From Candidatus Dormiibacterota bacterium (GTDB taxonomy: Bacteria > Chloroflexota > Dormibacteria > Aeolococcales > Bog-877), in contig DATLQZ010000111.1 in assembly GCA_035534915.1 (NCBI GenBank), forward strand, positions 90,446-154,445: a DNA stretch of 64,000 nucleotides, in the 5' to 3' direction. The notes below the pieces were generated by a model. That model saw only the letters and a program-made list of their open reading frames with translations. It was not told the DNA's origin and searched no databases. This document shows, in pieces, positions 15,636-42,613 of this stretch. The position numbers and the translations under genes are program-made. How positions within the stretch are numbered: position 1 is the first letter of the stretch; each line of letters opens with the position of its first letter.

Positions 15636-15809
15636 TCAACCGATCCCCCCGGCTGCCCAATGTGGGGGGCCTGCGATCATTGCCGCGGTCGCCCCATTGG
15701 GAACGCCGCTGGTGAGGGCACCGAAGTCGAGCCAAGCCTCTAATCCGGCGCCGACCATCCCAAGCGCGGCCATCGCGCTGACCGCTACCGCTCGGCCTGG
15801 CAACTGCAT
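15636..15809 (-). CDS. unannotated 57-aa Gly/Ala-rich hydrophobic small ORF (tentative; below the 60-aa track cutoff)
   Basis: My translation: MQLPGRAVAVSAMAALGMVGAGLEAWLDFGALTSGVPNGATAAMIAGPPHWAAGGIG. ggagga lies 6 nt before the ATG. About 72% GC3 by hand count. Confidence 0.2.
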   Translation of the reverse strand: MQLPGRAVAVSAMAALGMVGAGLEAWLDFGALTSGVPNGATAAMIAGPPHWAAGGIG

Positions 15810-28400: not shown

Positions 28401-28707
28401 AGTTTCCGCTCGGACCCCACTCGAGGTATCCACGGAGTGACGAGTCGGTCGCCCAGGTCACGTCAGCAGACGTTTGGGTGAGGTCCGATACATAGGGCGC
28501 GCGGGTCAGGAGGTTGCTGAACCCCTGAAAGGGCGCCACTGAAATCGGGCCCGGCCCGCTGGCCCCCGCCGGACTCGACTGGAGCACGCTTGCTGTAGCA
28601 GCCACAACGAGCGCACTCGCAAGCATTAGCGAGAGGTGAGCCCGCCGACCGTACCGGGGAAAGCGGAGCGTCTGCCCGCAGAGCCTAAGGCTCATCCTAC
28701 CGAACAT
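25462..28707 (-). CDS. secreted multidomain protein: purple-acid-phosphatase-like metallophosphoesterase, FN3, and 3 tandem Cys-containing repeat domains
   Basis: Signal peptide. Metallophosphatase motifs in order: MADTG, AGDVAY, DGNHG, VVWH, GHAH. FN3 at about aa 573-660. Three homologous modules of about 127-146 aa at the C-terminus. Confidence 0.9.
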   Translation of the reverse strand: MFGRMSLRLCGQTLRFPRYGRRAHLSLMLASALVVAATASVLQSSPAGASGPGPISVAPFQGFSNLLTRAPYVSDLTQTSADVTWATDSSLRGYLEWGPSGNCVANRALVPGSLPPSVPASATTPTTTSLEFAVLNRSEYQATVQLTGLTAGTTYCYRPVGYQYVGIVKTPVDLLGSNPSQSFTTLDPPNTSSTAPLTFDVMADTGENLANATQPFPIPSAGAPNYVNPDQAAIDHLIGQSGARFLLLAGDVAYPSGLNKRYGDLQQTGNASNPEVSTFFGPSYWPQTGGVPAFYTDGNHGLSSVDPLRIWPESATATTSGGLYGPVSYPSILGSQPATYPSDWYAFSTGNVRVYVLQVAWADTNAGAAPGGPYQIDAAAHWQANSAEYDWLRQDLAAHPGGIKFVVWHYPLRSDGSSQLSDTYLQNSSANPNGAQGSLETLLADNGVYIAFNGHAHTYQRVDPSGTGQLINYVTGGGGGTPSPVTCGSNVQGMSSLYALGWDPTTLPGVGSSCGVTNGVATSNVPVPQSAAQVYNFLRVTVSGSQVTVSPTNAAGQVFDQQTYTFGASAPLAPSQPTGIGEPSAVSLSWALPPNQSTSATTSYIVTPYVGGVAQTPIDTGSVYPTYTAVGLTNGTSYTFTVAGVNAVGTGPPSPQSAAIVPTAPNPATYNPLTPYRICDTRAGNPSNLAGVNAQCAGQTFGPGSQLNIQVGGTNPSGTTSGGVPASATAVVLNITSTDTTAPSWLAVWPAGGSMPLSSSVNWSPGQTVANLVTVALGPGGTISLYNSNGQADVVVDVEGWMDSTSASGGPYVPLSPYRVCDTRAGNPSNLTGANAQCQGRTVGPGGTLTIQVTGTNPSGTASGGVPATGVIAVALTVTATNATAPSWLAVWPAGQPQPLASNVNFSAGQTIPNGVIAAVGSNGTVNIYNANGGTDVVVDVAGYYASPPSSPTGASYFVPMVPYRICDTRPTSSSGLTDACTGHTLQGGTVFVLQVTGVGGVPLSATAIVLNVTVTDTNAPDYLAVYPDGVPRPFTSNLNWAAGETVASGVTATLGSDGALDFYLPQGRADLVVDVVGWQQ
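25465..26706 (-). repeat. three tandem copies of a 380-440-nt coding repeat (aa 668-808, 809-954, 955-1081)
   Basis: Each copy has P.R.CDTR...C.G..., APSWLAVWPAG/APDYLAVYPDG, S..N(W/F)..G.T..N and D.VVDV.G(W/Y). Copies 1 and 2 still share nucleotide strings (ggccaNacggcgagccagct) about 430 nt apart. Confidence 0.85.
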
Positions 28708-28730
28708 GGTCCTCCCATAGACGTGGTTGG

Positions 28731-28760
28731 ATGGTAGGCATGTCAGGTTCCCGCTGTCAA
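28731..28760 (-). promoter_or_regulatory. sigma-70-like promoter for the large secreted protein gene
   Basis: Minus strand: TTGACA, 18 nt, TACCAT, then gggagga 5 nt before the ATG at 28707. Confidence 0.45.
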
Positions 28761-29103
28761 GAAGGAATTGGGCCCAGCATGGTCCCTGTCAAAGTCCAGA
28801 GGGACGTTAGCCGCTGGGTCCCGCCTGAGTTCACTGATGTAGGCGGCGGTCCCCATGTCGGCAGGCGGGCAGGCGGTCAGGAGATCGGGAGGGCGACTTT
28901 GAGGGACCCCTGGGGGCTGCCCGGGACTTGCGCGCAGGCTGGCCCATCACATCTTGCGGCAGATGCCGACCAAGGAATGGCTCGCAGTGCGCATGAGCCG
29001 CGGTGAGTCGACCGGTGCCACCCAGAGTGAGCTCTCGCTCGGGCCGCCCGCCAGCTAGCCCGACCCGCGATCTTGTGACGACCGAAGGGATGCTCGCTAA
29101 GAC

Positions 29104-29346
29104 TCAGCTGGCCAAGCCCCGAACGTCACCGATGCGACGCGGTGGCGCGAAGTCCCCTGCGCTCTGGGCAGAAAGAGTCCTGACGGCTGTCACGCCAAGG
29201 GCGCGCATGATTGAGCAAGCCAGGCAGCACGGTACCCCGGTGGCGTCGAGGACAGCACCCTCGAGGAGTTTGGTCTGGCACTCGGGGCACCGCCCGATTG
29301 TGCGTCGCAATGGCAAGAGCCCGCCCAACGTGCTGGCAATGTTCAC
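29104..29346 (-). CDS. small C4 zinc-finger protein (TraR/DksA-type spacing; tentative)
   Basis: GTG start 6 nt after gaggagg. CPEC-17 aa-CLAC (RRTIGRCPECQTKLLEGAVLDATGVPCCLAC). In the same frame as upstream ORF 29374..29715, separated by one TAA and 9 codons. Confidence 0.45.
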   Translation of the reverse strand: MNIASTLGGLLPLRRTIGRCPECQTKLLEGAVLDATGVPCCLACSIMRALGVTAVRTLSAQSAGDFAPPRRIGDVRGLAS

Positions 29347-29363
29347 TGAGAACCTCCTCAGGG

Positions 29364-29381
29364 ATCCGTAATGTTACGGAT
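29364..29381. promoter_or_regulatory. 18-bp near-perfect palindrome ATCCGTAA-TG-TTACGGAT
   Basis: 8-bp arms read directly. It spans the TAA stop of ORF 29374..29715 and lies 18 nt upstream of the GTG (8 nt upstream of the SD) of the zinc-finger ORF. AT-richer than the surrounding sequence. Confidence 0.4.
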
Positions 29382-30182
29382 GGCCCCATCTCTGCTTCGA
29401 TTGTGGGATGTCAGTCAGGTTCGATGGCCTGATCTCGTCTTTCACGAGCTTGATCTGATATGCGCCATAGCACCACCACGGGTCGGCGACGATCGTGTGA
29501 AGGTCCGGTGACACCTCCATACGTCTGAATAGGGATTCACCCAGATCTCCGGTTTCGACGGCATCGGGCCCCAGGCCAGAGCGGGCAGGTGTGGATCCAT
29601 TCCTAGACCCAGACCCCTGGAATCGGGCGACTTGCAGCCTTCCAAGTACGCTTCCAGCCGGGCTCGCTGGCCGCGAGATGGGCAGGGCCGCAAGTGCCGT
29701 CGAGCATGCGCTCATACAACACGCATTCTGGCAACGCTAACTTATGACGAAGTTAAGACATGTTTGACAATCCACCGCCGGGCAGCGGGCGCGATTGCAA
29801 CCCGGATCACTGGGCCGTTGGCGCCGTGGAAACAACCACTGGAACACCGCTGTGGTGTCAGTCCGGGTCCATTCCGGCGTGTGGGATTAAACTACGGGGG
29901 TGCCGGTAATTGTTTGGCGCAGATCCCTGGGTGCCCGCGGCGGGCCACCGCGGGCTTGGCGCGCCTCGGAGCGGGTTCGAGTCGATGCATCCTCGGGATT
30001 GGGTCTCGGCTCGAGCGATCGGCTGGCGCGTATTCCGGTGGTCCGGACGCGCCAATGACCTGGTCTCCGGCGAGCCCCTGGACCGGAGGGGCGGCGACGC
30101 CCAAGTCTTCGCGACCGGTGCCGTGCCGCCCGCGGAAGAGTGAGCAGACGTTCGGCCTAACCCGACTGCCTGGGGCCATGCC

Positions 30183-31346
30183 ATGAGGTTGCGGCTGCTG
30201 GTTACCGCCGTTGCCGTGATGGCCGTGGTGGTGACTGCGGCGGGGGTTTTGGTAGCTGTCCGTGTCGCCTCGGTGCGGCCGTCGGCTCGGGCCAGCCCGA
30301 CCACCTCCTCCTCGGAGGCGCCCTCGCCCACCGTCGCGCTCACCCCCGGACCTGCCGGAAGACCAGTTGTGTACGTCTATTACTATATGTGGTGGACCCC
30401 TCAGCATTGGCAGTCGAAGCTGGGACCCAAGTACCCCTTGAATGGGCCGCGGCTCGTTGCCCCCGGATCCACGAATGCCCAAGGCTGCAACCCTACGACC
30501 AAGTACCCAGGTGCGACTATTGTTGACCTACCGCAGGTGGGGTTATACAACCAGAACTTAGCCTCCACGTACGAGACCCAAATCTCCCAGGCCGCACAGG
30601 CCGGAGTAACGGGATTTCTGGCGAGTTGGCAGGGGACTGGAACTGCGCATCAGAGCGCGGTTTCATCTGGGTACGACCAGAGGTTGGCGCTGTTGGTCCA
30701 CGCTGTGAATCTCTACAATCAGGTCCACCCGACAGCCCCCTTCTACCTGGGCCTGGCTTTCTCGGCCTTTGGGGACTACACGCGCCCGGCCAGCCAGATC
30801 GAAGCTGACCTCACGTACTTCTCCCGCACCTATGGGCGCAATCCTGCTTTTCGTAACTCCTACAGCTCGAATCCCATCGTGGTGGTGATGGACAGCCGTA
30901 AGTACTCCCTGTCGACGGTAAGTGGCATCTGGAACACCGAGCATGCATCAGCCTACCTAGTTGGCGATGAGACCAGTCAGTCGTGGGCTCGCGATCAGCC
31001 GTACTTGGACGCAACGTCCTACTACTGGTCCTCTGAGGACCCGTGGACGAACACCGCTGCACGGTCCGACCTCATTAGCCTCGGGAAGCAGGTGAGGGCT
31101 GCGGGCAAGAGGTGGTTCGCGCCCTTCATTCCGGGATACAACAAACAGTTGCTCGGTGGGTCGTGCGTTCCTCGGGACGGCGTAGCGACGATGGCGAAGC
31201 TCTGGAGCATAAACGCCGCCAGCGGCCCGCAGGGTTGGTTTGGGATCAGTTGGAATGAGTTCGTCGAGAATACCTACCTGCAGCCCAGCCTGAACTACGG
31301 GTCGACGTATTTGCGCGAGCTGAAGCTTCTTATTGAGGGCACCTAG
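30183..31346 (+). CDS. membrane-anchored/secreted GH99-like glycoside hydrolase (endo-alpha-mannosidase family-like; tentative)
   Basis: N-terminal TM/signal anchor and a Ser/Pro linker. VVYVYYYMWW..., GLYNQN...AGVTGFLASWQGTG, FIPGYN and ISWNEFVENTYLQP resemble the YY.WY / G.YSS.D / SWWG / PGY.D / FNEW.EGT.IEP pattern I recall for GH99. Confidence 0.5.
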   Translation: MRLRLLVTAVAVMAVVVTAAGVLVAVRVASVRPSARASPTTSSSEAPSPTVALTPGPAGRPVVYVYYYMWWTPQHWQSKLGPKYPLNGPRLVAPGSTNAQGCNPTTKYPGATIVDLPQVGLYNQNLASTYETQISQAAQAGVTGFLASWQGTGTAHQSAVSSGYDQRLALLVHAVNLYNQVHPTAPFYLGLAFSAFGDYTRPASQIEADLTYFSRTYGRNPAFRNSYSSNPIVVVMDSRKYSLSTVSGIWNTEHASAYLVGDETSQSWARDQPYLDATSYYWSSEDPWTNTAARSDLISLGKQVRAAGKRWFAPFIPGYNKQLLGGSCVPRDGVATMAKLWSINAASGPQGWFGISWNEFVENTYLQPSLNYGSTYLRELKLLIEGT

Positions 31347-31540: not shown

Positions 31541-32890
31541 CTAGCGAACTTCCCCTGCGAAGACCCAGCTGACGAAGCGACGGCGCCACGGCCCGAGCGC
31601 CAACAGGCTCAGAACGGCCACGGCCACCGCAACAGCGCCTCCGACGATATCCAGGAGCGTGATCACAGGAATGGGCACACTGGTCGCTCTGGACACGCGC
31701 ACCTTAAGGCCCGGGCCGAAGCCTCCCCCGACGAGCTTGATTGCGTATAGACCACTCGGGACGGTGATGGTAGATTGACCTCTACTTGGCAGCACAACGT
31801 GAATAGTCGTGCCCTCGGGGCCGGTGACGGCGACTGTCCCGCCAACTTGCGCTCCAAGGAAGGCATTGCGAGCGATCAGGGCCAACGGAAAGATTGCCAG
31901 TCGCATCGTCCAAGTCCCACCATCGCTGGGGACGAAGCGATCAACGCCCTGATTGGCCACATTGACGCCCTTGTAGTAGCCCGCGACAAGAGCATAGGTG
32001 GTGGCCCCGACCGCGAGCGCCCCGGTGGACGTCCGACGAGGTACTGGAGTGGTCAGCCAGACCGCCGACTGGTTGCCTACAGCGACCTTAGTCCCGTCGG
32101 GTCCGGTCAGGCTGAGCCCCTGGACCTGGGATCGGGCCAGCGGCCGCCCGAGCCCATCTTGGAACTTCAATGGCGTCAAATAGGCCACCTGGAGCGCGAT
32201 CTGAGTGTAGGTCCGTCCGTGCGGTTTGATAGTGCGAGTCAGCGACACGTCGCCGTTGGACCAGTCCACGAAGGTCACCCGCACATTCGGCGGCGGGGTA
32301 AGGAGAACCGCTTGGAGTGTGAGGTGGCCCCCGACCGGCAAGCTCGTATTGATGTAGCCCTCCGCGTCCGGAGCCAAAGCCGGTCCGCCATCGACGCGGA
32401 CGGCGATGGACTTGGGGATGTACGGTACGACCCGGATGCTGAGTGACGCTGCGGTCACGGTGACAGAGCGGGACGCGCGGGCCGACTCAATGGGTCCACC
32501 CCCCTTGAAGATGGCGGTGATGGTCTGGATGCCCGCTGGCAACACGGCGTGGATGGTCGTGGCCGCGTACCCACTGGAATTGGTCTTGGCGCCGCCGACC
32601 TCCGCTCCAGCAGCGTAGAACCGTATGAGGTGCTTAACCACCGGCACCCCGGACGATGTGACCACCACCGAGACGGGGATTGGCTCCCCGGTAGTCAAGG
32701 AATTGGTGGGTACCGTCAACGCGATATTAACGACGATGTGCGGCTGACTCTTGTGAGTTGCTGCGACCACAGGGGATGCGGCTAGGAGCAATAGCGGAAA
32801 GAACCACAGAACAAATGCTCCCTTGCGCAATCCGCTCCTGCGAGCCGTGGAATGCCGCTGTGGTCGGTGCCACTTTTCGTGTAGGTCCAT
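31541..32890 (-). CDS. membrane-anchored extracytoplasmic protein with Ig-like beta-sandwich repeats (hypothetical)
   Basis: Start taken at the Met whose ATG overlaps the upstream TAA (TAATG). N-terminal signal/TM (FVLWFFPLLLLAASPVVAA), beta-rich repeats (PIPVSVVVTSSG..., SVTVTAASL) and a C-terminal TM helix plus RRR. Confidence 0.6.
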   Translation of the reverse strand: MDLHEKWHRPQRHSTARRSGLRKGAFVLWFFPLLLLAASPVVAATHKSQPHIVVNIALTVPTNSLTTGEPIPVSVVVTSSGVPVVKHLIRFYAAGAEVGGAKTNSSGYAATTIHAVLPAGIQTITAIFKGGGPIESARASRSVTVTAASLSIRVVPYIPKSIAVRVDGGPALAPDAEGYINTSLPVGGHLTLQAVLLTPPPNVRVTFVDWSNGDVSLTRTIKPHGRTYTQIALQVAYLTPLKFQDGLGRPLARSQVQGLSLTGPDGTKVAVGNQSAVWLTTPVPRRTSTGALAVGATTYALVAGYYKGVNVANQGVDRFVPSDGGTWTMRLAIFPLALIARNAFLGAQVGGTVAVTGPEGTTIHVVLPSRGQSTITVPSGLYAIKLVGGGFGPGLKVRVSRATSVPIPVITLLDIVGGAVAVAVAVLSLLALGPWRRRFVSWVFAGEVR

Positions 32891-34254
32891 TAGGCTTTCC
32901 TCTCTTCGCGACGTCGGTTCCGGCTCAGCCATGTCGATCCCGCATACGTGATAAGAAAGAGCAGCAGTAGCCCGGGGACGCTATACGCGACCACGACTGC
33001 CGTGAGCGAGCCGTGGGCCAGCCCCGCAGTGGGCATCGATCCCATGGTTACTGGTGCGGGGGACCCCCCGCGCGTATGAAACGAGAAAGCTCCCATCAGG
33101 TTTGTAGCCGCTTGGTCGCGCGTGGTAAGCGGTGGCAAGCCGTAGAGGGTCTCAATGAACTTCAGGATGGATGTGAAGTCGGCGGTACCCGTGTAGATCG
33201 TCCCCCGATCTGCGAATGGAGACACTATCAGGAGCGGTACGCGGAAGCCGTAGCCGACACTGTCCACCTGGGGGGGCGGCACGCCGTCGTACCAGCCGCC
33301 CCAGTCGGACCAGGTGAGGAAGATCGCCGATGAGCTCCAGATCCGGCTGCGCATGATGGTATTGATCAACCCGACTGTGGCAATTTCGCCGCTGGCGATG
33401 TTGCCGGGCGCGTGCTCCGTCTGCCCCGGCTGGACTACGTAGCTGACCGCCGGGGCGCTGCCGCGGGCGAGGTCGTGGTACAAGGTCGAAAGGTCCTGGA
33501 CCCGGGCTAGGTCGGCCGGGTTGCCGGCGATATTCGCCAACCCCAGGATGGGCACCTGCGGTAGGAGGGCGGCCTGCAGCCCGCTGGCGACATGTTTGCG
33601 GTACTGCGCCACGAAATATCCCCAGCTCACGCCAGCACCATCCAGCCGGTTAAAGATCGTGGGAACGGTAGGAAGAGCCGCCCCGGCAGCCGCTGGGGCC
33701 CAACTCTGGGCTCCCACTAGGAATTGGTGATTGGCGGTACTCCCGCCCAGCGCAGAGGAGAAAAAGTGGTCGGCGAGAACATACTTACGGGCCAGCGACC
33801 AGTAGTAGGGAATCTCCTTGGCGGTGTAGTAGCCCATGGTGAGGGAGCTGCCACCGGCCAGCGATTGTTGGGTCGCCGAGAAGCCGTTCATGGCGCCGCC
33901 GTTGAGAGCCTGCTTGGCTGCCCGCAGGGAGTTGTCCAGCGGAGCTGTGCGCACGGTGGTCAGCTGATGTGCCGTGACCACTCCCGAAGCGGGACTGGAT
34001 GGGTTGAGAGGGACTGTGGTACTGGCCGAGAGACCGGTGACGCCCGGGAAGGTGCCGAAGTAGTTGTCGAAGGAGTGGCCCTCTTGGACGATCACAAAAA
34101 CATGCTTGATCTTGCCAGCCGCGAGGTGATTGATCGCTACCGGCCCGGCCGTGGCTGGCTGGGGGGGCAGTGGAGCGGCGGCCGCCATCGCGGGGGCGGT
34201 CAACAGCCATCCGGTGACAAGCCCGACGCCAGTGCAGCGGAGGAATTGCCTCAC
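32890..34254 (-). CDS. phosphoesterase family protein (PLC / AcpA acid-phosphatase family, PF04185-like) with signal peptide and C-terminal TM anchor
   Basis: Hallmark IKHVFVIVQEGHSFDNYFGTFPGV. TEHAPGNI, LTWSDWGGWYD, GFRVP. C-terminal VVVAYSVPGLLLLFLITYAG followed by RNRRREERKA. Confidence 0.8.
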   Translation of the reverse strand: MRQFLRCTGVGLVTGWLLTAPAMAAAAPLPPQPATAGPVAINHLAAGKIKHVFVIVQEGHSFDNYFGTFPGVTGLSASTTVPLNPSSPASGVVTAHQLTTVRTAPLDNSLRAAKQALNGGAMNGFSATQQSLAGGSSLTMGYYTAKEIPYYWSLARKYVLADHFFSSALGGSTANHQFLVGAQSWAPAAAGAALPTVPTIFNRLDGAGVSWGYFVAQYRKHVASGLQAALLPQVPILGLANIAGNPADLARVQDLSTLYHDLARGSAPAVSYVVQPGQTEHAPGNIASGEIATVGLINTIMRSRIWSSSAIFLTWSDWGGWYDGVPPPQVDSVGYGFRVPLLIVSPFADRGTIYTGTADFTSILKFIETLYGLPPLTTRDQAATNLMGAFSFHTRGGSPAPVTMGSMPTAGLAHGSLTAVVVAYSVPGLLLLFLITYAGSTWLSRNRRREERKA

Positions 34255-35906
34255 GGCTGCACCTGGTAGATCAGGACCACCGCGGAGGGACGCGCCGCCG
34301 ATGAGTGATGCTGATCGTATTGATAGACTAAGATGCCGTTGAATTTGTGCGCCAGAGCCAGTATTCGATCGGCAAACTGGACACTTCTGGCTGCCGAGTA
34401 GGCGTCGTAGACCAGGTATTGCACCGCTCCGCTTCTGATCAGCAGGTCCGCGTTCTTAACCGCTGCGTATGCGGGGTTACGGTGCAAGGGGTTGGTGCTG
34501 ACGCTTAGAGCCAGAGCGCGATCCAGGCTGTAGAACTGGATGACGTTTGCAAACGTCGGGCCGATGGTCAAGAACACCGAACCAGGCAAGGTGTGGGCCT
34601 TGATCCACAAGGCGGTCGGCCGTCCCGCCATCAAGCCGCCTGATCCCGCCAGAGCGGTGACCCGGGCGGGCAGGGGCTGGCCGCTGTCAGAACCGACCAG
34701 AGCGGCCGCCGTGGCGTCCGCAGTCAGGACCGGGCTGACGGTGAATAGCAGTGACCCCACTGCCGCCAAGGCCACCAAGACTGAAACCGCCAGGCTGGCG
34801 CGGGCTGCCCCGGTCGCGCGTCGGCCCAGGCGAACGAGCACGGCCGCAAACGCAGCGCCACAGGTGCGGGCCCCAGAAGTGGCCAGGAGCATGACTGGAG
34901 CCATCGCCGGAATCAAGTACTCGTAGCCCTTGGTCGGCCAGAGTTCCAGGAAGCCACACATCATCACAACCAGAGAAAGCAACAGGACTTCAGTCGTGGT
35001 CCGCCGGCGGATTGCAGTGAGGGTACCGATGATCACCAAGGCGGTTATTCCCCAGCCGATGGTTCCGAAGAGGCCGGGATAAAAGAGTAGGGAGTGATTG
35101 GCGGGCCGAAGAATCTGCCACACGAAATAGTCCAGACCCGTCGACGCCTTGCCCGCGCTGAGTTCGGCCAGCGGGTATGGAGCGATTGTCACCAAGTAGA
35201 TTCCGCCGGCGATGAGCAGGTCACGGTACCGCCGGACGACGTGCGGCGCTAGGATCAGGAAGACGAGGACTGGCGGCACCATCAGTATGGCCGTCTCCTT
35301 GGAGAGGAAGGCGAGCCCGGCGGCGAAGGCGGCACCCCACAAGAAGAGGTGATTGGTGCGTCTTACGTAGAGGCACAGGAACAGGACGCTTACCGCGACA
35401 AAAAATGCTTCCGGTCCGTCTAGGAGCATCTGCCGCGACACTGAGATGGGGTACGGTGATAGTGCGGTGCAAAGCATTGCGATTAGGGCGGCGAGGCGCC
35501 CCCACAAGGTAAGCGCCACCAACCCGGTAACCAGTATCAGGCCGACGCCAAAGGCAACGCACACCTCCCGTGCGCCGAGTCCGGTTACTCCGCTCAATCG
35601 ATACAGGATCGAAACGATCAGCTGAATGAGGAGTGGATGTGCTCGGAAAATCCCGAACAGGTGACTGTACTGAGTGAAGCCGCCGAGGCCCGCTGCCTGG
35701 GCGGCGTACACAGCCTCGTCGGAATTCAACCCATACTGACCTAGGTTGTGCAGTCGAATCGCCAGGCCAGCCGCCAAGATTGCTACGGCTGCCCCCACGG
35801 TCAGGACGGCCCCATAGTGGCGTGCTCCCACGGCGGTCCGAATATGTCTCATCTGAGCTGGGTCCCCGTGGTTGCCGAGGCCACCATCGTCCCGGATGGC
35901 GTGCAA
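34251..35906 (-). CDS. GT-C fold glycosyltransferase (ArnT / PMT_2 / GT39-83-like)
   Basis: At least 10 TM segments. First-loop motif GLNSDEAVYAAQA matches the DE..YA signature of ArnT/PMT-type GT-C enzymes. Soluble C-terminal domain of about 130 aa. The stop overlaps the next start by 4 nt. Confidence 0.7.
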   Translation of the reverse strand: MHAIRDDGGLGNHGDPAQMRHIRTAVGARHYGAVLTVGAAVAILAAGLAIRLHNLGQYGLNSDEAVYAAQAAGLGGFTQYSHLFGIFRAHPLLIQLIVSILYRLSGVTGLGAREVCVAFGVGLILVTGLVALTLWGRLAALIAMLCTALSPYPISVSRQMLLDGPEAFFVAVSVLFLCLYVRRTNHLFLWGAAFAAGLAFLSKETAILMVPPVLVFLILAPHVVRRYRDLLIAGGIYLVTIAPYPLAELSAGKASTGLDYFVWQILRPANHSLLFYPGLFGTIGWGITALVIIGTLTAIRRRTTTEVLLLSLVVMMCGFLELWPTKGYEYLIPAMAPVMLLATSGARTCGAAFAAVLVRLGRRATGAARASLAVSVLVALAAVGSLLFTVSPVLTADATAAALVGSDSGQPLPARVTALAGSGGLMAGRPTALWIKAHTLPGSVFLTIGPTFANVIQFYSLDRALALSVSTNPLHRNPAYAAVKNADLLIRSGAVQYLVYDAYSAARSVQFADRILALAHKFNGILVYQYDQHHSSAARPSAVVLIYQVQP

Positions 35907-35966
35907 CGAGGAGCTATCGGGGCAGCCCGGACCGTTCCGACACCGATTGGTGCCGCGTCCAGCCCA

Positions 35967-37115
35967 CTACCGTCCTTCTTGGACATCGGGGCCTGCCGAG
36001 GTCATCAGGGACCCGGCCAGCGCGGGTTCCCCCCCCACTGGGGCGAGGACGGCATCGGATGGCGACGCCGTGACCGCTGCCCCGACCAGTTCGGGCCAGC
36101 TGAAGTCTGCGACGCGCAACCGCACGATCTCAACGGAGCGAAGAGCCGACTGCAGGACCTCACGCTCCACCGCCTGAACCTGCTGGAAGCTCAGGCCTGC
36201 CACGGTTAACTGGGGCGCCATGGTGCGAAATGGCGGGAACTCATATGCGTCGGCGGTGTTCTCGAGCAGTTGCTCAATCGCCTCGTCCCGGCTGACTGGG
36301 GCCGCGAGCGCGGGCTGGCCCCTCTCGATCAGGAAAAGGCGCTCCACCTGGCACCGACGACTCATCTCGCAGGGGACCAACTGACCGACCATGTACTTGG
36401 GGGGAGGGATGATTGCCTGTACCAAACTGTTCATCGCCATAATTGGTAGTGGCCGACCCCCAAGCCACTTCCCGACTGACCTTCCGCTTCGGGAATGAAG
36501 TCGACTCTGGATGGACAGCGCGGCGCGCTGCTGGGGCTTGAGCCGACTGGCCGCGACAGCTCGCAGCGTGTGGGCGCTGATCGTGAGTGGCTTGGGGTAG
36601 CGGCTGGCCACGCCGCTTGGCGAAAGGATGGTCATGTCGTCGGAGAGGAAGCTACCCGAGCACTGACGCAAGAGCCGGAGGATGGTGGACGTCTTGCCCG
36701 TGTCCGTCTTGGCGGACAGCATCACACCGTGTCCGAAGAGGGAGATGCAGCCCGCATGCAAGAGCATCTGGCCCTGACCGGCGACCAAAAAACGCAGAAG
36801 TGGTTCCACCACATTTGTGTAGAGAACGTGGCGGGAGACAGCCAGCAACGGGGCCGCCACCACGCGGACGGGAGGTCCCATCTCGATATCGAAGTTCGCC
36901 GTTACGGCGCCTCCCCACTCTCGGTAAGAGTAGCCTGGGAGATCCGCCTTTGGGACTGTTCCGCGCACCAAGGGGCGGACCTCGATCACCAAGTCCGGGG
37001 TGCCCGGCTCAGTAGTCCTGAAGAGCTCCAGCTCCGGTAGACGCACCTTCGAATGCACCCTTGCAACTCCATCGATGTCGTAGTGGAGCCAATGGCTCCG
37101 GTCCGAGTCACTCAT
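35967..37115 (-). CDS. HprK-related P-loop protein (putative kinase; function unknown)
   Basis: LLHAGCISLFGHGVMLSAKTDTGKTSTILRLLRQCSGSFLSDDMTIL: a Walker-A-like A....GKT followed by LSDD, as in HPr kinase C-terminal-like / HprK-related kinase proteins. The start overlaps the gtrA stop by 8 nt. Confidence 0.55.
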   Translation of the reverse strand: MSDSDRSHWLHYDIDGVARVHSKVRLPELELFRTTEPGTPDLVIEVRPLVRGTVPKADLPGYSYREWGGAVTANFDIEMGPPVRVVAAPLLAVSRHVLYTNVVEPLLRFLVAGQGQMLLHAGCISLFGHGVMLSAKTDTGKTSTILRLLRQCSGSFLSDDMTILSPSGVASRYPKPLTISAHTLRAVAASRLKPQQRAALSIQSRLHSRSGRSVGKWLGGRPLPIMAMNSLVQAIIPPPKYMVGQLVPCEMSRRCQVERLFLIERGQPALAAPVSRDEAIEQLLENTADAYEFPPFRTMAPQLTVAGLSFQQVQAVEREVLQSALRSVEIVRLRVADFSWPELVGAAVTASPSDAVLAPVGGEPALAGSLMTSAGPDVQEGR

Positions 37116-37614
37116 GGGAGGCTCCTGTACTTACTGATTCGGTGGCCGTCCGCTGTCGCCATATCCAGCCGTCCGCGACGGCGAACCTGGCTAACATGAA
37201 GACGCCGACTGCTACGAGGTTGCTGATGAGGTAATTGACGCCCATCCTGCTGGTCAGAACATAGAGGACCGGAAGACGCAGCAGAAGCGAGGCCGTGTTG
37301 AGACCGTCGAAGATGACGAAGCGGCTCAGCAGCGGACCCAGCCCGGCACCTACGCTCGCCTGCCTGAAAACCCAGGCCTCGTTGATCGCAAAGGCGACTA
37401 CTGTGGACCCCTGGCTGGCCACGGCTGCAGCCACCAAATAGTTAAGTCCGAACCCGCTCACCAGGATCGCCAGGATGACCTGGTTGACCACAAGCCCAGC
37501 CAGACCCACCAGACCGAAGGCTCCTCCGCGCGCGATCCGACCGCCGCCCCAGCGCATCAGCGCGGCCACGGTCGGGATCCGCCCTAACGACCCGGAAGTC
37601 CCCGCGAGCTTCAT
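37108..37614 (-). CDS. GtrA-family membrane protein (putative lipid-linked sugar flippase)
   Basis: Four TM helices with the GtrA pattern (GLVVNQVILAILVSGFGLNYLVAAAVASQGSTVVAFAINEAWVFR). ATGA overlap with the GT2 stop. Confidence 0.85.
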   Translation of the reverse strand: MKLAGTSGSLGRIPTVAALMRWGGGRIARGGAFGLVGLAGLVVNQVILAILVSGFGLNYLVAAAVASQGSTVVAFAINEAWVFRQASVGAGLGPLLSRFVIFDGLNTASLLLRLPVLYVLTSRMGVNYLISNLVAVGVFMLARFAVADGWIWRQRTATESVSTGASHE

Positions 37615-39131
37615 GACACCTCAGGCACTGGCCCGGTGCCGCGAGCAGCATCGTCGGCGCCAGCCAACCAGGAGCTCTCCTGACGACTGGACCATGTCAC
37701 AGCGGCGTGCAGGTCCCGGGCCGAGAACGAGGTTCTTCCGGCTCGGGCCAAGACCGCGATGCGAGTGACCCGCCGGCCACCGTTGAGCCTGGGAACGAGG
37801 ATCAGACTGAAAGACTCGACATTCACTCGGGTTTGAGGCCGACTGGATGGGAGTTCTGTCATCAGGAGTGGACGCCGAGTGCGGGTCACGTGATTCACCA
37901 AGTCAGCACCGACCATGTCTTCGAGCCGGTGCGAGCTGTCAACGGGCTGGAGGGCCTCGGCCCACCAGGCGCGGTCGGCGCCGAGGCGGCGGGCTAGGGC
38001 CTGAAGCGAGAGCTCGTCGGCCACTGAGACCGCCGGGGCCAAACGGCGACCCCGGTAACGTACGTAAGAGACCATACCATAGCCGACAGCGAGTGCAACC
38101 AGCTGGGCAATCAAAGCCACGAGCACCGTGGCTGCCCTGGCCTTGGCGGCCAGCAATGCGAAGCTGAGGATGCCGCCTGCCACGCTCGCCAGACCCATCG
38201 CCCACAGCAGCCACTGGCCCGCCATTCCGACCCGCCACAGAGCGGACCGGAAGGTCACCATGCTGTAGACCGCGACACTGGCGAGGAGGCTCGTTCCGGA
38301 GGCCACCAGCCAAGGGGTGGGCGGTTGGAGCGGCAACTGGGTGAGGATGGCGATGCAGATCACGAATACCCCCATGCCGGCCCCTGCGGAGAAGGCCACC
38401 TTGCCCAGCAGCGCGGTGAGGGGAACATATATGAAGAGGGACAGCACATGCCTCCCAAACAGGACTCCCTGAGCCAGCGTGGCCTTGCTGACTCCGGAGT
38501 ACCGAGGCCCAAATGCAAAGGGAACATCGGTCACGTGTATCGCTGGCAGGCACACGAGGAGCTCGAGCAGGATCTTGAAGCCAATCGGTCTCATCTCCAG
38601 GCCCGCTACACAGCTTTGCCGTACGCAGAAGAAGCCACTCAGCGGGTCGGTCGTGCGCCGGCTCTCGGCGAAGAAGCACTGCGCGACCCAGGACACGCCC
38701 CTGCTCACAGCCTTCCGAAAGGGACCGGCAAGCCCGGCCGCGCTGCCCCCGGTCGTGTAGCGTGAAGCCACGGCTAGGTCGGCGCCTTCCCTTATCGCGG
38801 CGAGTAACCTGGGGACGACACTGGGAGGATGTTGGAGGTCGGCGTCCATTACGCACACCGCAGTCCCGACGGCCAAAGCGAGCCCCGCGAACACGGCGGT
38901 TCCGAGGCCGCCTTGTTCGGAAGGATCGCGTTCGATGACCCTCCAATTCCGATCGCCCGCTGCAATCTGACGGAGCATCGGTCGGGTGACCTCATCGTTG
39001 CTGTCATCCACGATGATGACCTCGTACTCGATCCCCGCGAGCGCCTCCATCAGCTGCTCATGTAGGGCTCCAAGGTTTGCGGCCTCGTTACGCGTGGGAA
39101 CGACGACACTCAGCTCGCAGACCTCGGTCAC
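37611..39131 (-). CDS. GT2 polyprenyl-phosphate sugar synthase (Dpm1/GtrB/Ppm1-like) with an extra 4-TM region and a C-terminal domain of about 150 aa and unknown function
   Basis: LSVVVPTRNEAANL, IIVDDSNDE and VMDADLQHPP (DxD). Start chosen at the GTG 7 nt after gggggaggag. The tracked ORF extends 148 low-complexity codons further, to 39575. Confidence 0.85.
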   Translation of the reverse strand: MTEVCELSVVVPTRNEAANLGALHEQLMEALAGIEYEVIIVDDSNDEVTRPMLRQIAAGDRNWRVIERDPSEQGGLGTAVFAGLALAVGTAVCVMDADLQHPPSVVPRLLAAIREGADLAVASRYTTGGSAAGLAGPFRKAVSRGVSWVAQCFFAESRRTTDPLSGFFCVRQSCVAGLEMRPIGFKILLELLVCLPAIHVTDVPFAFGPRYSGVSKATLAQGVLFGRHVLSLFIYVPLTALLGKVAFSAGAGMGVFVICIAILTQLPLQPPTPWLVASGTSLLASVAVYSMVTFRSALWRVGMAGQWLLWAMGLASVAGGILSFALLAAKARAATVLVALIAQLVALAVGYGMVSYVRYRGRRLAPAVSVADELSLQALARRLGADRAWWAEALQPVDSSHRLEDMVGADLVNHVTRTRRPLLMTELPSSRPQTRVNVESFSLILVPRLNGGRRVTRIAVLARAGRTSFSARDLHAAVTWSSRQESSWLAGADDAARGTGPVPEVS

Positions 39132-39643
39132 GACCGAACTCCTCCCCCGGGAGTAATCTCCGCGACCAGGCGCGCGCCCGGCTTGGGCGGCCCGGCCTGC
39201 AGCTGGCCAAGGGTAGTCCACAGTGACCGACCGGAATCGGCCCGCGTCCACTCCCCGTGCCCTACCAACTGACCTCTGCAACGACCGTTCTGACGGCACA
39301 CCTGAAGCTCCCTGTGGCACGCGCCACCCTTTTTCAAGAAGGAGGCCGGCCCCCCCCAGGCCTGTGGCCGTATCGCCCACCAGACACCCTGTCTCCGCTG
39401 CTGTTCCGGATTGTGACCGGAGATATCCGACCTCGTCAAGGGGGATGACGGGGCTGTTACAAGTGTGGCCTGACCGAATCGGACGCCCCGCCGGATCCTC
39501 GGGGGCGAAGCCGTGTTCCGTACTGCCCTCTGGAACAGGGCGACTGAGGGACGGCGGTTGGGCAGCCGGGGGCACGTCGGACCCGAGATCGACAGCAGAG
39601 CTACGGCCTCCTTCCCCTGGGCCACTCGGCGACTTGGTGCGAG

Positions 39644-39672
39644 AAATTAGGGCAGTTTTGGCTCGCTGTCAA
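39644..39672 (-). promoter_or_regulatory. near-consensus sigma-70-like promoter about 500 nt upstream of the GT2 start
   Basis: Minus strand: TTGACA, exactly 17 nt (gcgagccaaaactgccc), then TAATTT. Such a match is unexpected by chance in this GC-rich context. Confidence 0.45.
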
Positions 39673-40246
39673 GGAGCGGTAGGGGAGAGGGGCTGGTAAT
39701 CTCTCCTAACCAGCCGGGCGGACCTTGCGTTGCCTTCCTGCTTACCTGAGCGATCCGTGCCGAGGCGGATACGGTGGCTTGGTCCGGTTTCTTAGGGCGT
39801 GGCTCCGGCGGAGGCATGGCCCTGAGGGAAAGATACTTGCCCCCACCGGAGATCCCGAAACCATCGGTTTCGCGTTCGGAGTTGGCGCGGGCCACGCTCA
39901 GATGGCCCAGCGCCTCTAAGTCACGCGGGTCCGTCCCCAGAACCCGAGGTCCGGCTGGCGACGTCTCTGAGGGAGATCGCGGGGCGCCCAAATCTGCGGA
40001 TGAGGCCGAGCCGAACTGGTGGTCGCTGATCGCTCAGGCCCGGACTCAAATGGGGGCTCCCGCGGCAGAGCGTCAAGGCGGGGCGGACCCTCCCGGGCAG
40101 GACCCATTGCGGTCAGCGGTGCGGACGCGGGTTAGACCGCGAACGGCGACGCCACGAACTCCCGTTCGGCCTCAGAAGGTGGGGCACAGACTCGTATGTA
40201 TGCCGGAACGGGGTTACAACCTGCCGGCCTTGATCGCGCCGTCTGG

Positions 40247-42613
40247 TCAGAGTCCCGTAGTGATGTCTAGCATCGCCCTTGTCAGGGCCATGCGGCTGGG
40301 TCGCTCGTCAGCGAATCGGGCCAAGGCGGCGACTATGTGAGCGCCCGTGAGGTGAGCCTCCTCCATGACTTCGTCCACGCTGCCTCCGGTCCGCCAGCGA
40401 TCATCCCAATCAGGGGAGAGGGAGTATTGGTCTGCCAGTGGGGCAGAGATCCAGTCGCGCATGAGACGGAGCGCGCCATTGGTGATGGCCATCGAGTCGA
40501 GGCGGTCCGCCGCACTTACGGTGGCGTCGCGGTAGGCCTCCCCCTGTAAGGCAAAGAGCTGCGGGCTGATCGCCGCGACGATCTTCAAGTTGTAGCCGGC
40601 GCGGTCGATTTGAGGCAGAACTGAGATCAAATTAGCCGTCGGCAAAGTCCCTCGGACGAAAACGGTGCCGTGTCGCGGCTCGCCCTCTCTAAAGTCGCGG
40701 ATGAGGTACGCTCCTCGAGCCGCCTCCTCGTGGGAGGGTATGGCCAGCGCAGTCCGGTCTGGTATCTCCACCGGGGGTCGGGTCAGATGAAGAGCGATGA
40801 TCGGGGCTGGGCTCGCCAGCGCTGCCGCTAGGACGACCGGTACCTCGTTGTACTCCCAAGGGTGCAGGTCGATGACGTGGCCGGCGGGGAACAGTTGGGT
40901 GACGCCGGGAGAGAAGATCCCGAAATGGGTACGCGAATCCTCGGCTGTTTCGGGGCCGGAGTGTCCCGCTATCCACAGCACCTTGCCCACCTTGAGCTCG
41001 CAGTCCTGGGCGAGCTGGCTGAATAGTCTCATCTCTCCGTACTTCAGGTAGCTGAAGGACCCGTAGGTGGAGCAGGCAGTCCAGAAGCCGTCAAAGTCGC
41101 GGAAGGGGTCTTCGGCGAGGTTCACAGAGGCTATCCCGACGCTGATTCCGGCGTTGGTGAACTCGGTTATCTCTTGAGGCAAGACCGTACCTCGCCGGTT
41201 CGCGACTCGGTCGTACCAACCCCACCCGGGAATGTCATCCCATCCCTTGCCGAAGCCGCTGAGGTTGGTGGAGTCAGCGAGATCGGCGGAGCTGCCGATG
41301 AAGAGGGGTCGGCCGTATTCAGACCTGGCAAAGGAGTTGACCCAGCTACCCCACGCCGCCAAAGCGGCGCGATTGGGCTGGCGCTCCCCGGGCGCTTTGA
41401 ACATTGCTGGCGGATATGATCGAAAGTCGGTCAGGCGAGGATCCGAGAAGATCTTTGCTGCCCTCCCTCCCAGGTTGAAACCCTCAATCTGCTCGGGGAC
41501 CGAGGCGGCGATCTGGAGCAGCCTGTCCGCCAGGTAGTCAACGAGATTGCGGTCCCGGCGGAGGACCGCAAGCGCTGTCTGTAGGTTGTGTGCAGCTTGT
41601 TGCGACAGCGCCTCCGGGTCGGTTGGAGCCGGCTCGTCAACTCCTTCGTAGGTGACTCCGTATAGCTGCATGAACCGTTTGCGGACGGTCCAAAACTCAG
41701 GGCTGTTGAGCGGGTGAGGGGTTCCGTGGGAGGAGGCGTCGTATTTGCCGTAGCCTCGCCCCTTCTTGGTCTTGAACCACGCCGCTGAAGGACCGGAAAG
41801 ACTCCGATCGCGGCGGGTGACTTCCAAAACAGTCCGGGTGACCGACTCCCACTCCATGCCGTCATCGGTCCCGACGACGTGCCAGCCGTAGGGTTCGAAC
41901 CAGCTTCTGGGGTCCCCGGGGACAACCGAAGAAGCTGGCCGCTGATCGATGCCGAAGTCGTTCCAATCAACCAGGAAGATGAGGTTGTCCAGCCCCAGCC
42001 CCCAGGCGGAGTTTTTGGTTTCGTGGGCCGCTCCAGGCGTCAGCCCTCCTTCACCCTCTACCGTGAAGACTCGGACCTCGCCCGCTCCGGCGAGTTTGAG
42101 CGCGAGCGCCTCGCCAGCGGCAGGTGGCATCCCATGGCCGGAAGGTCCGGTGTTGAACTTGAGGAAGAGGCTCTTCCCACTCATCTCCGCGTGACCGGGC
42201 AGACCTCCGCGGTGCCGGAGTCCCAAGAGGTCCTCCCAGGTGAGAGCCCATCGGCCACCCTCCGGGGCGGCGAATCGTGGGTCTGAATCCCGTTCATGGC
42301 GGGCGCGCATCGCCTCGTTGAGCACCGCTAGGGTCGAGTAGATGAGAGGGACGGTGTGTCCTGCCGACAGGACGAAGCGGTCTCCAAAGCGCCGCCATGG
42401 ACGGTGGATGTCCCAGCGCATCGCTCCTGAGAGCATGGTGGCTATAAGCAGGTGGACTTTCGATCTGGACCCGCCTGGGTGTCCCGACTGCCGATAGTTG
42501 AGAGAGAGGTCGATCATCTCGTCAACGAGGTCCTTCAGGACCTCCCAGTGTCCAAACGACGCGCGGGATTCGGCGAGTAGATCTGCTGCCTCAGATCGCT
42601 GCGTGGTTGGCAA
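40247..42613 (-). CDS. transketolase-family ThDP enzyme, atypically long (788 aa)
   Basis: ThDP motifs SGHPGGS, LSAGHTVPLIYS, GPSGHGMPPAAG and EGEGGLTPG...N, plus pyrimidine-binding and C-terminal domains. Longer than canonical Tkt enzymes, which I recall as about 660-700 aa. Confidence 0.75.
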   Translation of the reverse strand: MPTTQRSEAADLLAESRASFGHWEVLKDLVDEMIDLSLNYRQSGHPGGSRSKVHLLIATMLSGAMRWDIHRPWRRFGDRFVLSAGHTVPLIYSTLAVLNEAMRARHERDSDPRFAAPEGGRWALTWEDLLGLRHRGGLPGHAEMSGKSLFLKFNTGPSGHGMPPAAGEALALKLAGAGEVRVFTVEGEGGLTPGAAHETKNSAWGLGLDNLIFLVDWNDFGIDQRPASSVVPGDPRSWFEPYGWHVVGTDDGMEWESVTRTVLEVTRRDRSLSGPSAAWFKTKKGRGYGKYDASSHGTPHPLNSPEFWTVRKRFMQLYGVTYEGVDEPAPTDPEALSQQAAHNLQTALAVLRRDRNLVDYLADRLLQIAASVPEQIEGFNLGGRAAKIFSDPRLTDFRSYPPAMFKAPGERQPNRAALAAWGSWVNSFARSEYGRPLFIGSSADLADSTNLSGFGKGWDDIPGWGWYDRVANRRGTVLPQEITEFTNAGISVGIASVNLAEDPFRDFDGFWTACSTYGSFSYLKYGEMRLFSQLAQDCELKVGKVLWIAGHSGPETAEDSRTHFGIFSPGVTQLFPAGHVIDLHPWEYNEVPVVLAAALASPAPIIALHLTRPPVEIPDRTALAIPSHEEAARGAYLIRDFREGEPRHGTVFVRGTLPTANLISVLPQIDRAGYNLKIVAAISPQLFALQGEAYRDATVSAADRLDSMAITNGALRLMRDWISAPLADQYSLSPDWDDRWRTGGSVDEVMEEAHLTGAHIVAALARFADERPSRMALTRAMLDITTGL

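Follow-up and report, generated by a model that had tools for sequence, protein, structure and literature searches.

A conserved gene module in Candidatus Dormiibacterota and other bacteria joins a probable mannosylation machinery to a kinase-like P-loop protein

The window analysed here, a stretch of 64,000 nt of contig DATLQZ010000111.1 of a Candidatus Dormiibacterota bacterium, contains a module of eight genes, which very probably directs polyprenyl-phosphate-mannose-dependent mannosylation. The module comprises a polyprenyl-phosphate sugar synthase of family GT2, a GtrA-family protein, a GT-C transferase, a P-loop protein with the fold of phosphoenolpyruvate carboxykinase (PEPCK) and of the bifunctional HPr kinase/phosphorylase (HprK/P), and four exported or membrane-anchored proteins. 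The P-loop protein is likely an integral catalytic component of this machine, because fusions of it with GtrA, with GT2-GtrA and with GT2-GtrA-GT-C exist in relatives. An earlier note on this DNA, which covered positions 31541 to 39672, had described a minus-strand operon of six genes for lipid-linked extracytoplasmic glycosylation, into which a putative kinase and an exofacial phosphoesterase are hard-wired. All six open reading frames (ORFs) are present and carry the domains that had been assigned to them, and the domain matches, the DXD motif of the synthase and the DE motif of the GT-C transferase agree with a glycosylation unit of synthase, GtrA protein and transferase. The unit is larger than described, however, since a gene for a protein resembling glycoside hydrolase family 99 (GH99-like) and one for a purple-acid-phosphatase-like (PAP-like) protein, both of which had been missed, also belong to it.

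The nearest relatives of the module are found in metagenome-assembled genomes (MAGs) of Candidatus Dormibacterota, whose P-loop proteins and GT2 synthases share 73-77% and 65-69% identity, respectively, with those of the window and whose contigs share the order GT2, GtrA, P-loop, GT-C, phosphoesterase, Ig-like, convergent GH99-like and PAP-like. The gene order is also present in a Limnocylindria MAG and in 'Chloroflexi' MAGs. A scan of one genome per species revealed relatives of the P-loop protein in at least 591 species genomes; the best 80 genomes include Dormibacterota, Chloroflexota and many Actinomycetota, and cultured carriers are Micromonospora, Dactylosporangium, Streptacidiphilus, Streptomyces sp. 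VRA16 and Oryzobacter terrae. In a synteny table of these 80 genomes, which was built by tblastn and whose denominators are the loci with enough flank, a GT2 gene lies upstream of the P-loop gene in 64 of 71 loci and a GtrA gene in 59 of 71. Downstream, a GT-C gene is present in 68 of 69 loci, directly adjacent to the P-loop gene in 57 of them, and a PF04185 gene in 60 of 69. GH99-like genes are located near the P-loop gene (48/58), Ig-like genes downstream of it (40/58), and relatives of the PAP-like protein (37-70% identity) are encoded within 10 kb of it (at least 35 of 87 loci). The PAP-like gene follows the P-loop gene and precedes the GT-C gene in loci L046, L033, L031, L037, L038 and L058, an arrangement seen in several actinobacterial loci. 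With dozens of species in three phyla sharing the module order, chance is far from sufficient as an explanation. The earlier proposal, for which a gene order shared by no relative would have been fatal, clearly withstands this comparison, and the hard-wiring of the P-loop and PF04185 proteins into that unit is borne out by the synteny across Dormibacterota, Chloroflexota and Actinomycetota and by natural fusions of the P-loop protein with GtrA, GT2 and GT-C. Two modules per genome were seen in some cases, namely L014 and L016 in MAG SMAG_U14059 and L047 and L055 in MAG BP_381. The taxon labels of L009 (Candidatus Micrarchaeaceae archaeon), L039 (Frigidibacter) and L063 (Proteobacteria) clash with identities of 45-77% to Dormibacterota and Chloroflexota modules, a conflict that is likely due to a binning or labelling error.

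The P-loop protein is soluble according to a hydropathy scan, and its AlphaFold2 (AF2) model has a pLDDT of 84 and a pTM of 0.83. Foldseek searches with this model retrieved PEPCK (1aq2) over the full length with a TMq of 0.45, and the C-terminal domain of HprK/P (3tqf, 2qmh, 1knx and 1kkm) with a probability of 1.0, in keeping with its earlier description as HprK-like. The protein is not a member of HprK/P proper, with which it shares the fold alone: it matches Hpr_kinase_C of Pfam below threshold (E 0.009, residues 117-163, 16.1 bits against a cut-off of 33.3 bits) and reaches 16.3 bits with TIGR00679 of NCBIfam, whose cut-off is 240 bits. The family profile had no match among PDB sequences, and the precomputed Pfam label ScmC (PF27840), which is at best weak for this family and whose name led to unrelated acronyms in the literature, was not adopted. 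Among 77 well-aligned orthologues, His120, the Walker A motif S134-AKTDTGKT-142, including K141-T142, and Asp159-Asp160 are invariant in all 77; this combination of a P-loop with a preceding His and a following Asp-Asp is what we take to be the residue arrangement of the HprK active site. The family-specific motifs YPKPLTISAHT and PPPKY are equally invariant (77/77). Furthermore, a helical insertion at residues 184-224 has a net charge of +3 to +10 in all 77 orthologues, whereas the rest of the protein averages -2. The context of membrane glycosylation and the fusions argue against phosphorylation of HPr at Ser46 by this protein.

An exhaustive profile search with the P-loop family retrieved 3349 cluster representatives with E-values of up to 1e-3, of which 223 reach 1e-30 or better. 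Long proteins are frequent among them, and Pfam matches identify the long ones as fusions: GtrA-Ploop, GT2-GtrA-Ploop, GtrA-Ploop-PMT_2 and one GT2-GtrA-Ploop-PMT_2 protein of 1310 aa. GT2-GtrA-Ploop is encoded by a single ORF of 845 aa in Micromonospora humi DSM 45647 and by one of 856 aa in the complete chromosome of Oryzobacter terrae, and one GtrA-Ploop-GT-C cluster comprises at least ten contigs of different sources. The representatives of that search may favour long sequences, and fused forms account for only about one in ten of the P-loop clusters at 90% identity. Going by the membrane topology of GtrA and PMT proteins, the order of the fused domains is consistent throughout: the C-terminus of GtrA, the P-loop domain and the N-terminus of GT-C are all located inside. 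We conclude that the P-loop domain is probably an integral and catalytically competent cytoplasmic part of the machine. In public annotations, proteins of this family appear as 'hypothetical', as 'putative flippase GtrA' or, wrongly, as 'dolichol-phosphate mannosyltransferase'. In the related locus L004 (9498..11131 of a 1.28-Mb contig), a GtrA and P-loop pair is present without adjacent GT2, GT-C or PF04185 genes and adjoins a GH99-like gene and a gene for a Metallophos/CarboxypepD_reg protein of 2182 aa. Because this pair stands without those three genes, GtrA-Ploop appears to be its minimal conserved core.

The GT2 protein matches PF00535 and contains the motif VMDADLQHPP that had been noted for it. 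Its family profile aligns with the dolichol-phosphate mannose synthase (DPMS) of Pyrococcus furiosus (PDB 5mlz; E 3.9e-82, residues 15-369) across the interface helices and all four transmembrane (TM) helices, with the same DADLQHPP motif in both. Foldseek likewise retrieved 5mlz for the AF2 model, with 32% identity, in addition to GtrB and ArnC; a GtrA_DPMS_TM match is located in the TM region of 20 of 49 family members, and the best NCBIfam match is PgfS. By its sequence, the protein thus qualifies as a putative polyprenyl-phosphate mannose synthase of the archaeal type III, the kind found in P. furiosus. The use of GDP-mannose is suggested by this homology and by the PMT-like and GH99-like neighbours. 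The four-TM region, which had been regarded as an addition to the enzyme, is canonical, as its alignment with the TM part of P. furiosus DPMS shows. An extra C-terminal domain does exist; however, it comprises about 130 aa rather than 150 aa and is tentatively GAF-like. The AF2 model has a pLDDT of about 90 at residues 410-480 of this domain, with a strand/helix pattern, and a weak GAF_2 match (E 0.045) recurs in 8 of 49 homologues, the best with an E-value of 3.8e-4. Foldseek of the full model is dominated by the DPMS/GtrB/ArnC core and says nothing on the C-terminal domain, which is cytoplasmic by topology. Actinobacterial GT2 versions lack this domain and cover only about 45% of the window protein as query. 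The extra domain was rejected as the target of the kinase-like protein, an idea put forward in the earlier note that cannot hold generally, since the domain is absent in Actinomycetota, although the kinase-like domain is fused to GT2 there. The start of the gene for the GtrA protein, a PF04138 member, overlaps the stop of the GT2 gene.

The GT-C transferase matches PMT_2 and PMT, and its score with PF02366 (33 bits) is above the cut-off. It contains the sequence NSDEAVYA, in agreement with the first-loop motif SDEAVYA reported before, and N-x-D-E-A-V-Y (D45-E46) is invariant in the first outside loop throughout the family. Approximately ten hydrophobic segments were predicted by hydropathy analysis, and a C-terminal extracytoplasmic domain is conserved. 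The window protein alone had no match among PDB sequences, whereas the family profile had significant matches (E 1.5e-6 to 0.017) exclusively with protein O-mannosyltransferases: 6p25 at 1.5e-6, 9e61 and 9i5k, which represent Pmt1, Pmt4 and another PMT. The sequence places the transferase among PMT-like enzymes, and it is no canonical GT39 Pmt, because no PMT_4TMC match was reported and PMT_2 outscores PMT. Neither the GT2 nor the GT-C protein therefore falls into an unrelated family in the profile and structure searches. Oryzobacter terrae encodes two GT-C paralogues in one module (L057, 11259..12794 and 14011..15798), with a GH99-like gene between them.

The PF04185 protein matches its family over the full length with 203 bits against a cut-off of 23 bits, and it matches the acid phosphatase AcpA (2d1g) and phospholipases C (PLCs) among PDB sequences; its PLC relatives are those of bacteria or plants. 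The C-terminal TM anchor that had been ascribed to it corresponds to a hydropathic segment at residues 415-440, and segments rich in Pro, Ser and Thr follow the signal peptide and precede the anchor. The gene follows the GT-C gene by a 4-nt overlap or a gap of less than 10 nt in loci L001, L005, L006, L007 and L059. Catalysis by NPC4 involves E23, N24, H79, T158, H264, D299 and E300 (PMC9837106); at these seven positions, E, G, N, S, H, S and D stand in the window protein, so that three of them are replaced. The motifs of the family, QEN, LDHS, the Ser/Thr nucleophile, SEHP, DD/DE and YDH, were fixed with a canonical orthologue and five solved homologues and read QEG, PLDNS, GGST, TEHA, SD (WSDWGG for DDWGG) and YDG in the window. 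The Asn of EN, the general-acid His, the first Asp of DD/DE and the His of YDH are lost, and Ser172, the nucleophile, Glu58, His281 and Asp317 are retained; six of ten motif residues are kept. Read in order, the ten are EGDNSHSDDG in the window type and ENDHSHDDDH in the canonical orthologue of the Micromonospora type. Among 68 module-linked orthologues, 27 possess nine or ten of the motif residues and 41 possess six or fewer. Some degenerate lineages are down to two to six of ten, with the gene still coupled to that of GT-C. Degenerate forms occur in at least three clades: the Dormibacterota clade of the window, another group of Dormibacterota/Chloroflexota, and several groups of actinobacteria. 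Because these proteins are degenerate and yet keep their place, their conserved role seems to need no catalysis, in contrast to the P-loop protein with its invariant kinase site. We lean slightly towards the view that the window protein is non-catalytic in this genome. Trimming of a phosphodiester outside the cell, which had been proposed for this protein, is poorly supported in this genome with three of the seven residues of known role in NPC4 lost.

The orthologue profile of the GH99-like protein matches the structures of two Bacteroides endo-alpha-mannosidases/mannanases of family GH99, BtGH99 (4acy) and BxGH99 (4ad1), the latter with an E-value of 1.6e-16. The sequence ISWNEFxEN aligns with SFNEWHEG of BtGH99, and E359 and E362 are invariant; this aligned pair of Glu residues (N-E-W/F-x-E) presumably corresponds to the catalytic residues of GH99. 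PF16317 is matched by 12 of 20 orthologues, whereas the window protein alone had a sub-threshold match with WbsX only in Pfam and no match among PDB sequences. The protein starts with an N-terminal TM segment, followed by a Ser/Thr/Pro-rich linker, SPTTSSSEAPSPTVALTP. In Actinomycetota, the gene is usually co-directional and located inside the operon. The PAP-like protein of 1081 aa matches Pur_ac_phosph_N and Metallophos above the cut-offs and contains an fn3 domain and three C-terminal repeats of approximately 130 aa each. Its translation contains DTG, GDVAY, GNH, VVWH and GHAH, that is, all five PAP motifs with the seven metal ligands. The repeats (25462..27100) form three tandem copies with the signature PYR[IV]CDTR...VVDV.GW and have no match in Pfam; in locus L001 (18092..19021) they constitute a separate gene of 309 aa, which matches the window at three offsets with 69%, 49% and 37% identity. 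The Ig-like protein is beta-rich with one Ig-like domain, for which the Big_3_5 match remains below threshold (30 bits against 35.5 bits). Its hydrophobic segments are located at residues 23-46 and 402-436. Of the anchors that had been proposed for both of its ends, the C-terminal TM segment holds, whereas the N-terminal segment, which ends in ...PVVAA/T, may be a cleaved signal peptide. The protein evolves fast, with 23-57% identity among positional homologues.

Table 1. Positions of the module genes and of the extra synthase domain in the window.
Feature	Position	Strand	Evidence
GT2 synthase	37611..39131	-	PF00535 E 1.8e-23 (Pfam)
GT2 extra C-terminal domain	37611..38009	-	~residues 375-506, alpha/beta, tentatively GAF-like
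GtrA-family 4-TM protein	37108..37614	-	PF04138 E 2.7e-18 (Pfam)
PEPCK/HprK-fold P-loop protein	35967..37115	-	AF2 and Foldseek; Hpr_kinase_C sub-threshold
GT-C, PMT_2/PMT-like	34251..35906	-	PMT_2 E 1.4e-14; PMT E 5e-8 (Pfam)
Exported PF04185 (AcpA/PLC-family) protein	32890..34254	-	PF04185 E 7.9e-60 (Pfam)
Ig-like exported protein	31541..32890	-	Big_3_5 E 8e-7, below cut-off
GH99-like membrane-anchored protein, convergent	30183..31346	+	orthologue profile vs 4acy E 1.7e-17
PAP-like exported protein	25462..28707	-	Pfam and five motifs

The ORF list and direct reading of the minus strand yield six consecutive genes between 31541 and 39131, which overlap at four of five junctions. All overlaps described before were found in the sequence: ATGA at the GT2 stop and GtrA start, ATGAGTGA shared by the GtrA and P-loop genes, the 4-nt GTGA at the GT-C stop and PF04185 start, and TAATG between the PF04185 and Ig-like genes. 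The gap of 60 nt reported between the P-loop and GT-C genes is correct if TTG 35906 is the start of the latter and grows to 114 nt if translation starts at the in-frame ATG 35852, which is more likely. The GT2 start, GTG 39131, is preceded by the Shine-Dalgarno sequence GGGGGAGGAG, and positions 39132..39672, which had been counted into the operon range, are an untranslated leader. The 1.1-kb leader 5' of the GT2 gene has no DNA or translated conservation among related loci, the 64-kb window contains no Rfam family and no tRNA, and promoter and terminator scans gave results no better than with shuffled sequence. A riboswitch or leader peptide 5' of the GT2 gene is not proposed because of the missing Rfam match and the unconserved leader. 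The module is flanked by two stretches of 1.1-1.5 kb without convincing ORF, 28708..30182 and 39132..40246. On the same strand, 1.1 kb upstream of the module, 40247..42613 (-) encodes a transketolase-like protein of 788 aa, which matches Transketolase_N, Transket_pyr and the NCBIfam transketolase models, all far below the equivalog cut-offs, and is a divergent member; it shows no synteny with the module in relatives. On the other side, the longest ORF of a class-III aminotransferase (22879..24903 (+), 674 aa) overlaps the preceding aldehyde dehydrogenase ORF (21977..23527 (+)) by about 650 nt. Its domain begins at residue 244, and the true start is probably located well downstream.

The best overall explanation, whose chances of being right in all its roles we put at about even, is a conserved envelope mannosylation module of monoderm-type soil phyla. 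At the cytoplasmic face, the Pyrococcus-type synthase, here with an additional GAF-like sensor domain, would place mannose on polyprenyl phosphate, and the GtrA-type 4-TM protein would act as a unit with the soluble P-loop enzyme. Outside, the PMT-like GT-C transferase would move mannose to an acceptor, and the membrane-anchored GH99-like and PAP-like enzymes would process the product or its carrier. The acceptor might be the Ser/Thr-Pro-rich stalks of co-encoded exported proteins, for instance SPTTSSSEAPSPTVALTP, or a membrane-proximal mannan. Mannose is the likely sugar because of the affinities to DPMS and PMT and the presence of the GH99-like and PAP-like genes. The P-loop phosphotransferase is predicted to dock on the inner membrane surface via its basic insertion and to phosphorylate a lipid substrate of the adjoining synthase/GtrA; the best guess is the conversion of free polyprenol to polyprenyl phosphate, which would feed the synthase and close the carrier cycle, and the alternative substrate would be the mannose of polyprenyl-phosphate-mannose. 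Polyprenol is favoured because consecutive steps of a pathway tend to fuse, because a small substrate would fit the two-domain, PEPCK-like shape, and because the basic patch would go well with an anionic membrane. A role of the P-loop protein as lipid-carrier or lipid-sugar kinase is nevertheless tentative, with confidence clearly below even. The PF04185 protein of this genome could be a non-catalytic or weakly catalytic partner of GT-C, which binds a phosphate-bearing ligand. It is tempting to speculate that the P-loop protein represents a new kind of lipid kinase at the membrane surface, or that it couples GtrA to ATP, and that a pseudoenzyme derived from the PLC/AcpA family serves as a subunit of GT-C; this joint proposal is, in our judgement, doubtful.

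Several points weigh against such a module. HprK-fold enzymes of known function act on proteins or peptides and not on lipids, and PEPCK acts on a small soluble acid. A polyprenol cycle would require a phosphatase outside the membrane, for which the erosion of the PF04185 site in most lineages would be awkward; there, the dephosphorylation would fall to the PAP-like enzyme or to a phosphatase encoded elsewhere. The retained Ser nucleophile, Glu58, His281 and Asp317 may allow a residual or altered activity of the PF04185 protein in the window. In Actinomycetota, the 'GtrA' part may not be a flippase but simply a membrane domain that belongs to the synthase, in the manner of P. furiosus DPMS. 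Furthermore, mannose is proposed as the sugar from homology to DPMS, PMT and GH99, and a single transcript is deduced only from the overlapping junctions.

The same genes could instead serve protein O-mannosylation of the co-encoded exported PF04185, PAP-like, GH99-like and Ig-like proteins, which would form a tethered secretome for scavenging phosphate and mannan; mannosylation would then stabilise their Ser/Thr/Pro-rich stalks, and the P-loop protein would be an HprK-like Ser/Thr kinase regulating the synthase or GT-C. The only solved relatives of GT-C are indeed protein O-mannosyltransferases, the substrates known for HprK-fold kinases are Ser residues of proteins or peptides, the PAP-like enzyme retains all metal ligands, and suitable stalks exist in the GH99-like protein, in which SPTTSSSEAPSPTVALTP follows the TM segment, and in the P/S/T-rich segments of the phosphoesterase. 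However, scavengers without catalytic residues should be lost, and PF04185 proteins are retained and coupled to GT-C at two to six of ten motif residues; four exported families in the same order in three phyla are more typical of parts of a machine than of its clients; and it is rare for a regulator to sit in the middle of one polypeptide, with GtrA and GT-C on either side. We regard this alternative as unlikely. A still smaller share of our confidence goes to a phospho-glycan model that builds on the earlier note, in which the kinase phosphorylates lipid-linked mannose, for example at O-6, GT-C transfers phosphomannose, and PF04185 and/or the PAP-like protein then erase the phosphate outside or remodel it. 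A kinase-like domain with invariant kinase residues does accompany two exported phosphoesterase families and glycosylation genes in three phyla, the active site of the PAP-like protein is intact, and decaprenyl-phosphate-ribose-5-phosphate and the pentofuranose three-component systems provide a precedent (PMC11127046). Yet these precedents remove the phosphate in the cytoplasm and not outside, transfer of a phosphorylated hexose is not known for any GT-C, and the PF04185 protein of this genome is without the general-acid His and other catalytic residues, as part of a degeneration seen in 41 of 68 orthologues. A nucleotide-driven P-loop partner that powers or gates the translocation of polyprenyl-phosphate-mannose by GtrA, or channels it from synthase to GT-C, is improbable: the driver of GtrA-type flipping is not established and GtrA/P-loop is the tightest linkage of the module, with an overlap of 4-8 nt or fusion and with the L004 pair lacking an adjacent GT2 or GT-C, but no motor protein is known with the PEPCK/HprK fold, and an invariant His and Asp-Asp by the P-loop indicate phosphoryl transfer to an acceptor hydroxyl, not simple NTP hydrolysis.

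Outside the membrane, bacteria generally attach sugars to surface glycans and proteins by way of three-component systems; the flipping of the lipid-linked sugar and the return of the carrier, however, are still poorly understood for GtrA-type systems. The module described here, whose P-loop protein is encoded in at least 591 species genomes and which spans three phyla, can place an invariant kinase-like site in one polypeptide with a synthase, GtrA and sometimes GT-C. Should the P-loop protein act as a lipid kinase or couple GtrA to ATP, a GtrA-type system would for the first time be seen directly coupled to nucleotide-driven chemistry; the module would then either run its own carrier cycle, in which polyprenol is phosphorylated, loaded with mannose, flipped, used for transfer and dephosphorylated outside, or produce a phosphorylated lipid-linked mannose. 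Cultivable carriers, such as Micromonospora, Streptomyces, Dactylosporangium and Oryzobacter, offer a tractable handle on the phosphorylation of carrier lipids or lipid-linked sugars. The PF04185 family with its repeated loss of catalytic residues beside GT-C may serve as an example of a pseudoenzyme recruited to a glycosyltransferase. For Dormibacterota, of which to our knowledge no member has been cultured, the module provides a first functional hypothesis for envelope mannosylation.

The module is widespread and apparently undescribed: no description of this gene combination was found in the open-access literature, where absence is no proof of novelty. Individual parts have well-studied counterparts. 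In the GtrB/GtrA/GtrC systems for O-antigen glucosylation of Shigella and Salmonella phages, and in their counterparts CsbB/GtcA/YfhO and PgfS/PgfM of Gram-positive bacteria, a GT2 synthase, a GtrA 4-TM protein and a GT-C are encoded together as in the module; however, the synthase of the module resembles archaeal DPMS far more than it does GtrB, and these systems have been described without the module's P-loop, PF04185, GH99-like, Ig-like and PAP-like proteins. The galactosamine system of Mycobacterium tuberculosis combines the GT2 synthase PpgS (Rv3631) with an assisting small GtrA-family protein, Rv3632, and the GT-C Rv3779. It handles another sugar, and we know of no kinase-like, phosphoesterase-like or GH99-like partners in it. 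The Ppm1/Pmt systems of Streptomyces and Mycobacterium share with the module the polyprenyl-phosphate-mannose donor, a PMT-type GT-C with a DE motif and an overlapping distribution in Actinomycetota, but Ppm1 and Pmt are encoded by unlinked genes and Pmt is a GT39 enzyme with PMT_4TMC, whereas the GT-C of the module scores best with PMT_2 and shares its operon with accessory genes. Additional phosphate chemistry within three-component systems has a precedent in the pentofuranose systems, where the synthase of the lipid-linked sugar bears a fused phosphatase domain (Kelly et al. 2024, PMC11127046). Their two enzymes, a phosphoribosyltransferase of the UbiA type and a HAD phosphatase, are both cytoplasmic, and a kinase is not part of these systems (PMC11127046).

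With HprK/P and PEPCK, the P-loop protein of the window has the fold and the P-loop/His/Asp-Asp arrangement in common, and it differs from them by the motifs YPKPLTISAHT and PPPKY, by the basic insertion and by its context of membrane glycosylation instead of carbon catabolite control. Similarly, the PF04185 protein shares the full-length family match and the position of the Ser/Thr nucleophile with AcpA, PlcH and NPC4; in contrast to these enzymes, it is membrane-anchored and coupled to GT-C, and its active site is degenerate, as in most module-linked orthologues. The closest counterpart of the synthase, P. furiosus DPMS (5mlz), has the GT2 domain, the interface helices and the 4-TM domain in common with the window enzyme, which adds the GAF-like domain of about 130 aa, whereas actinobacterial relatives carry the P-loop domain after the TM domain.

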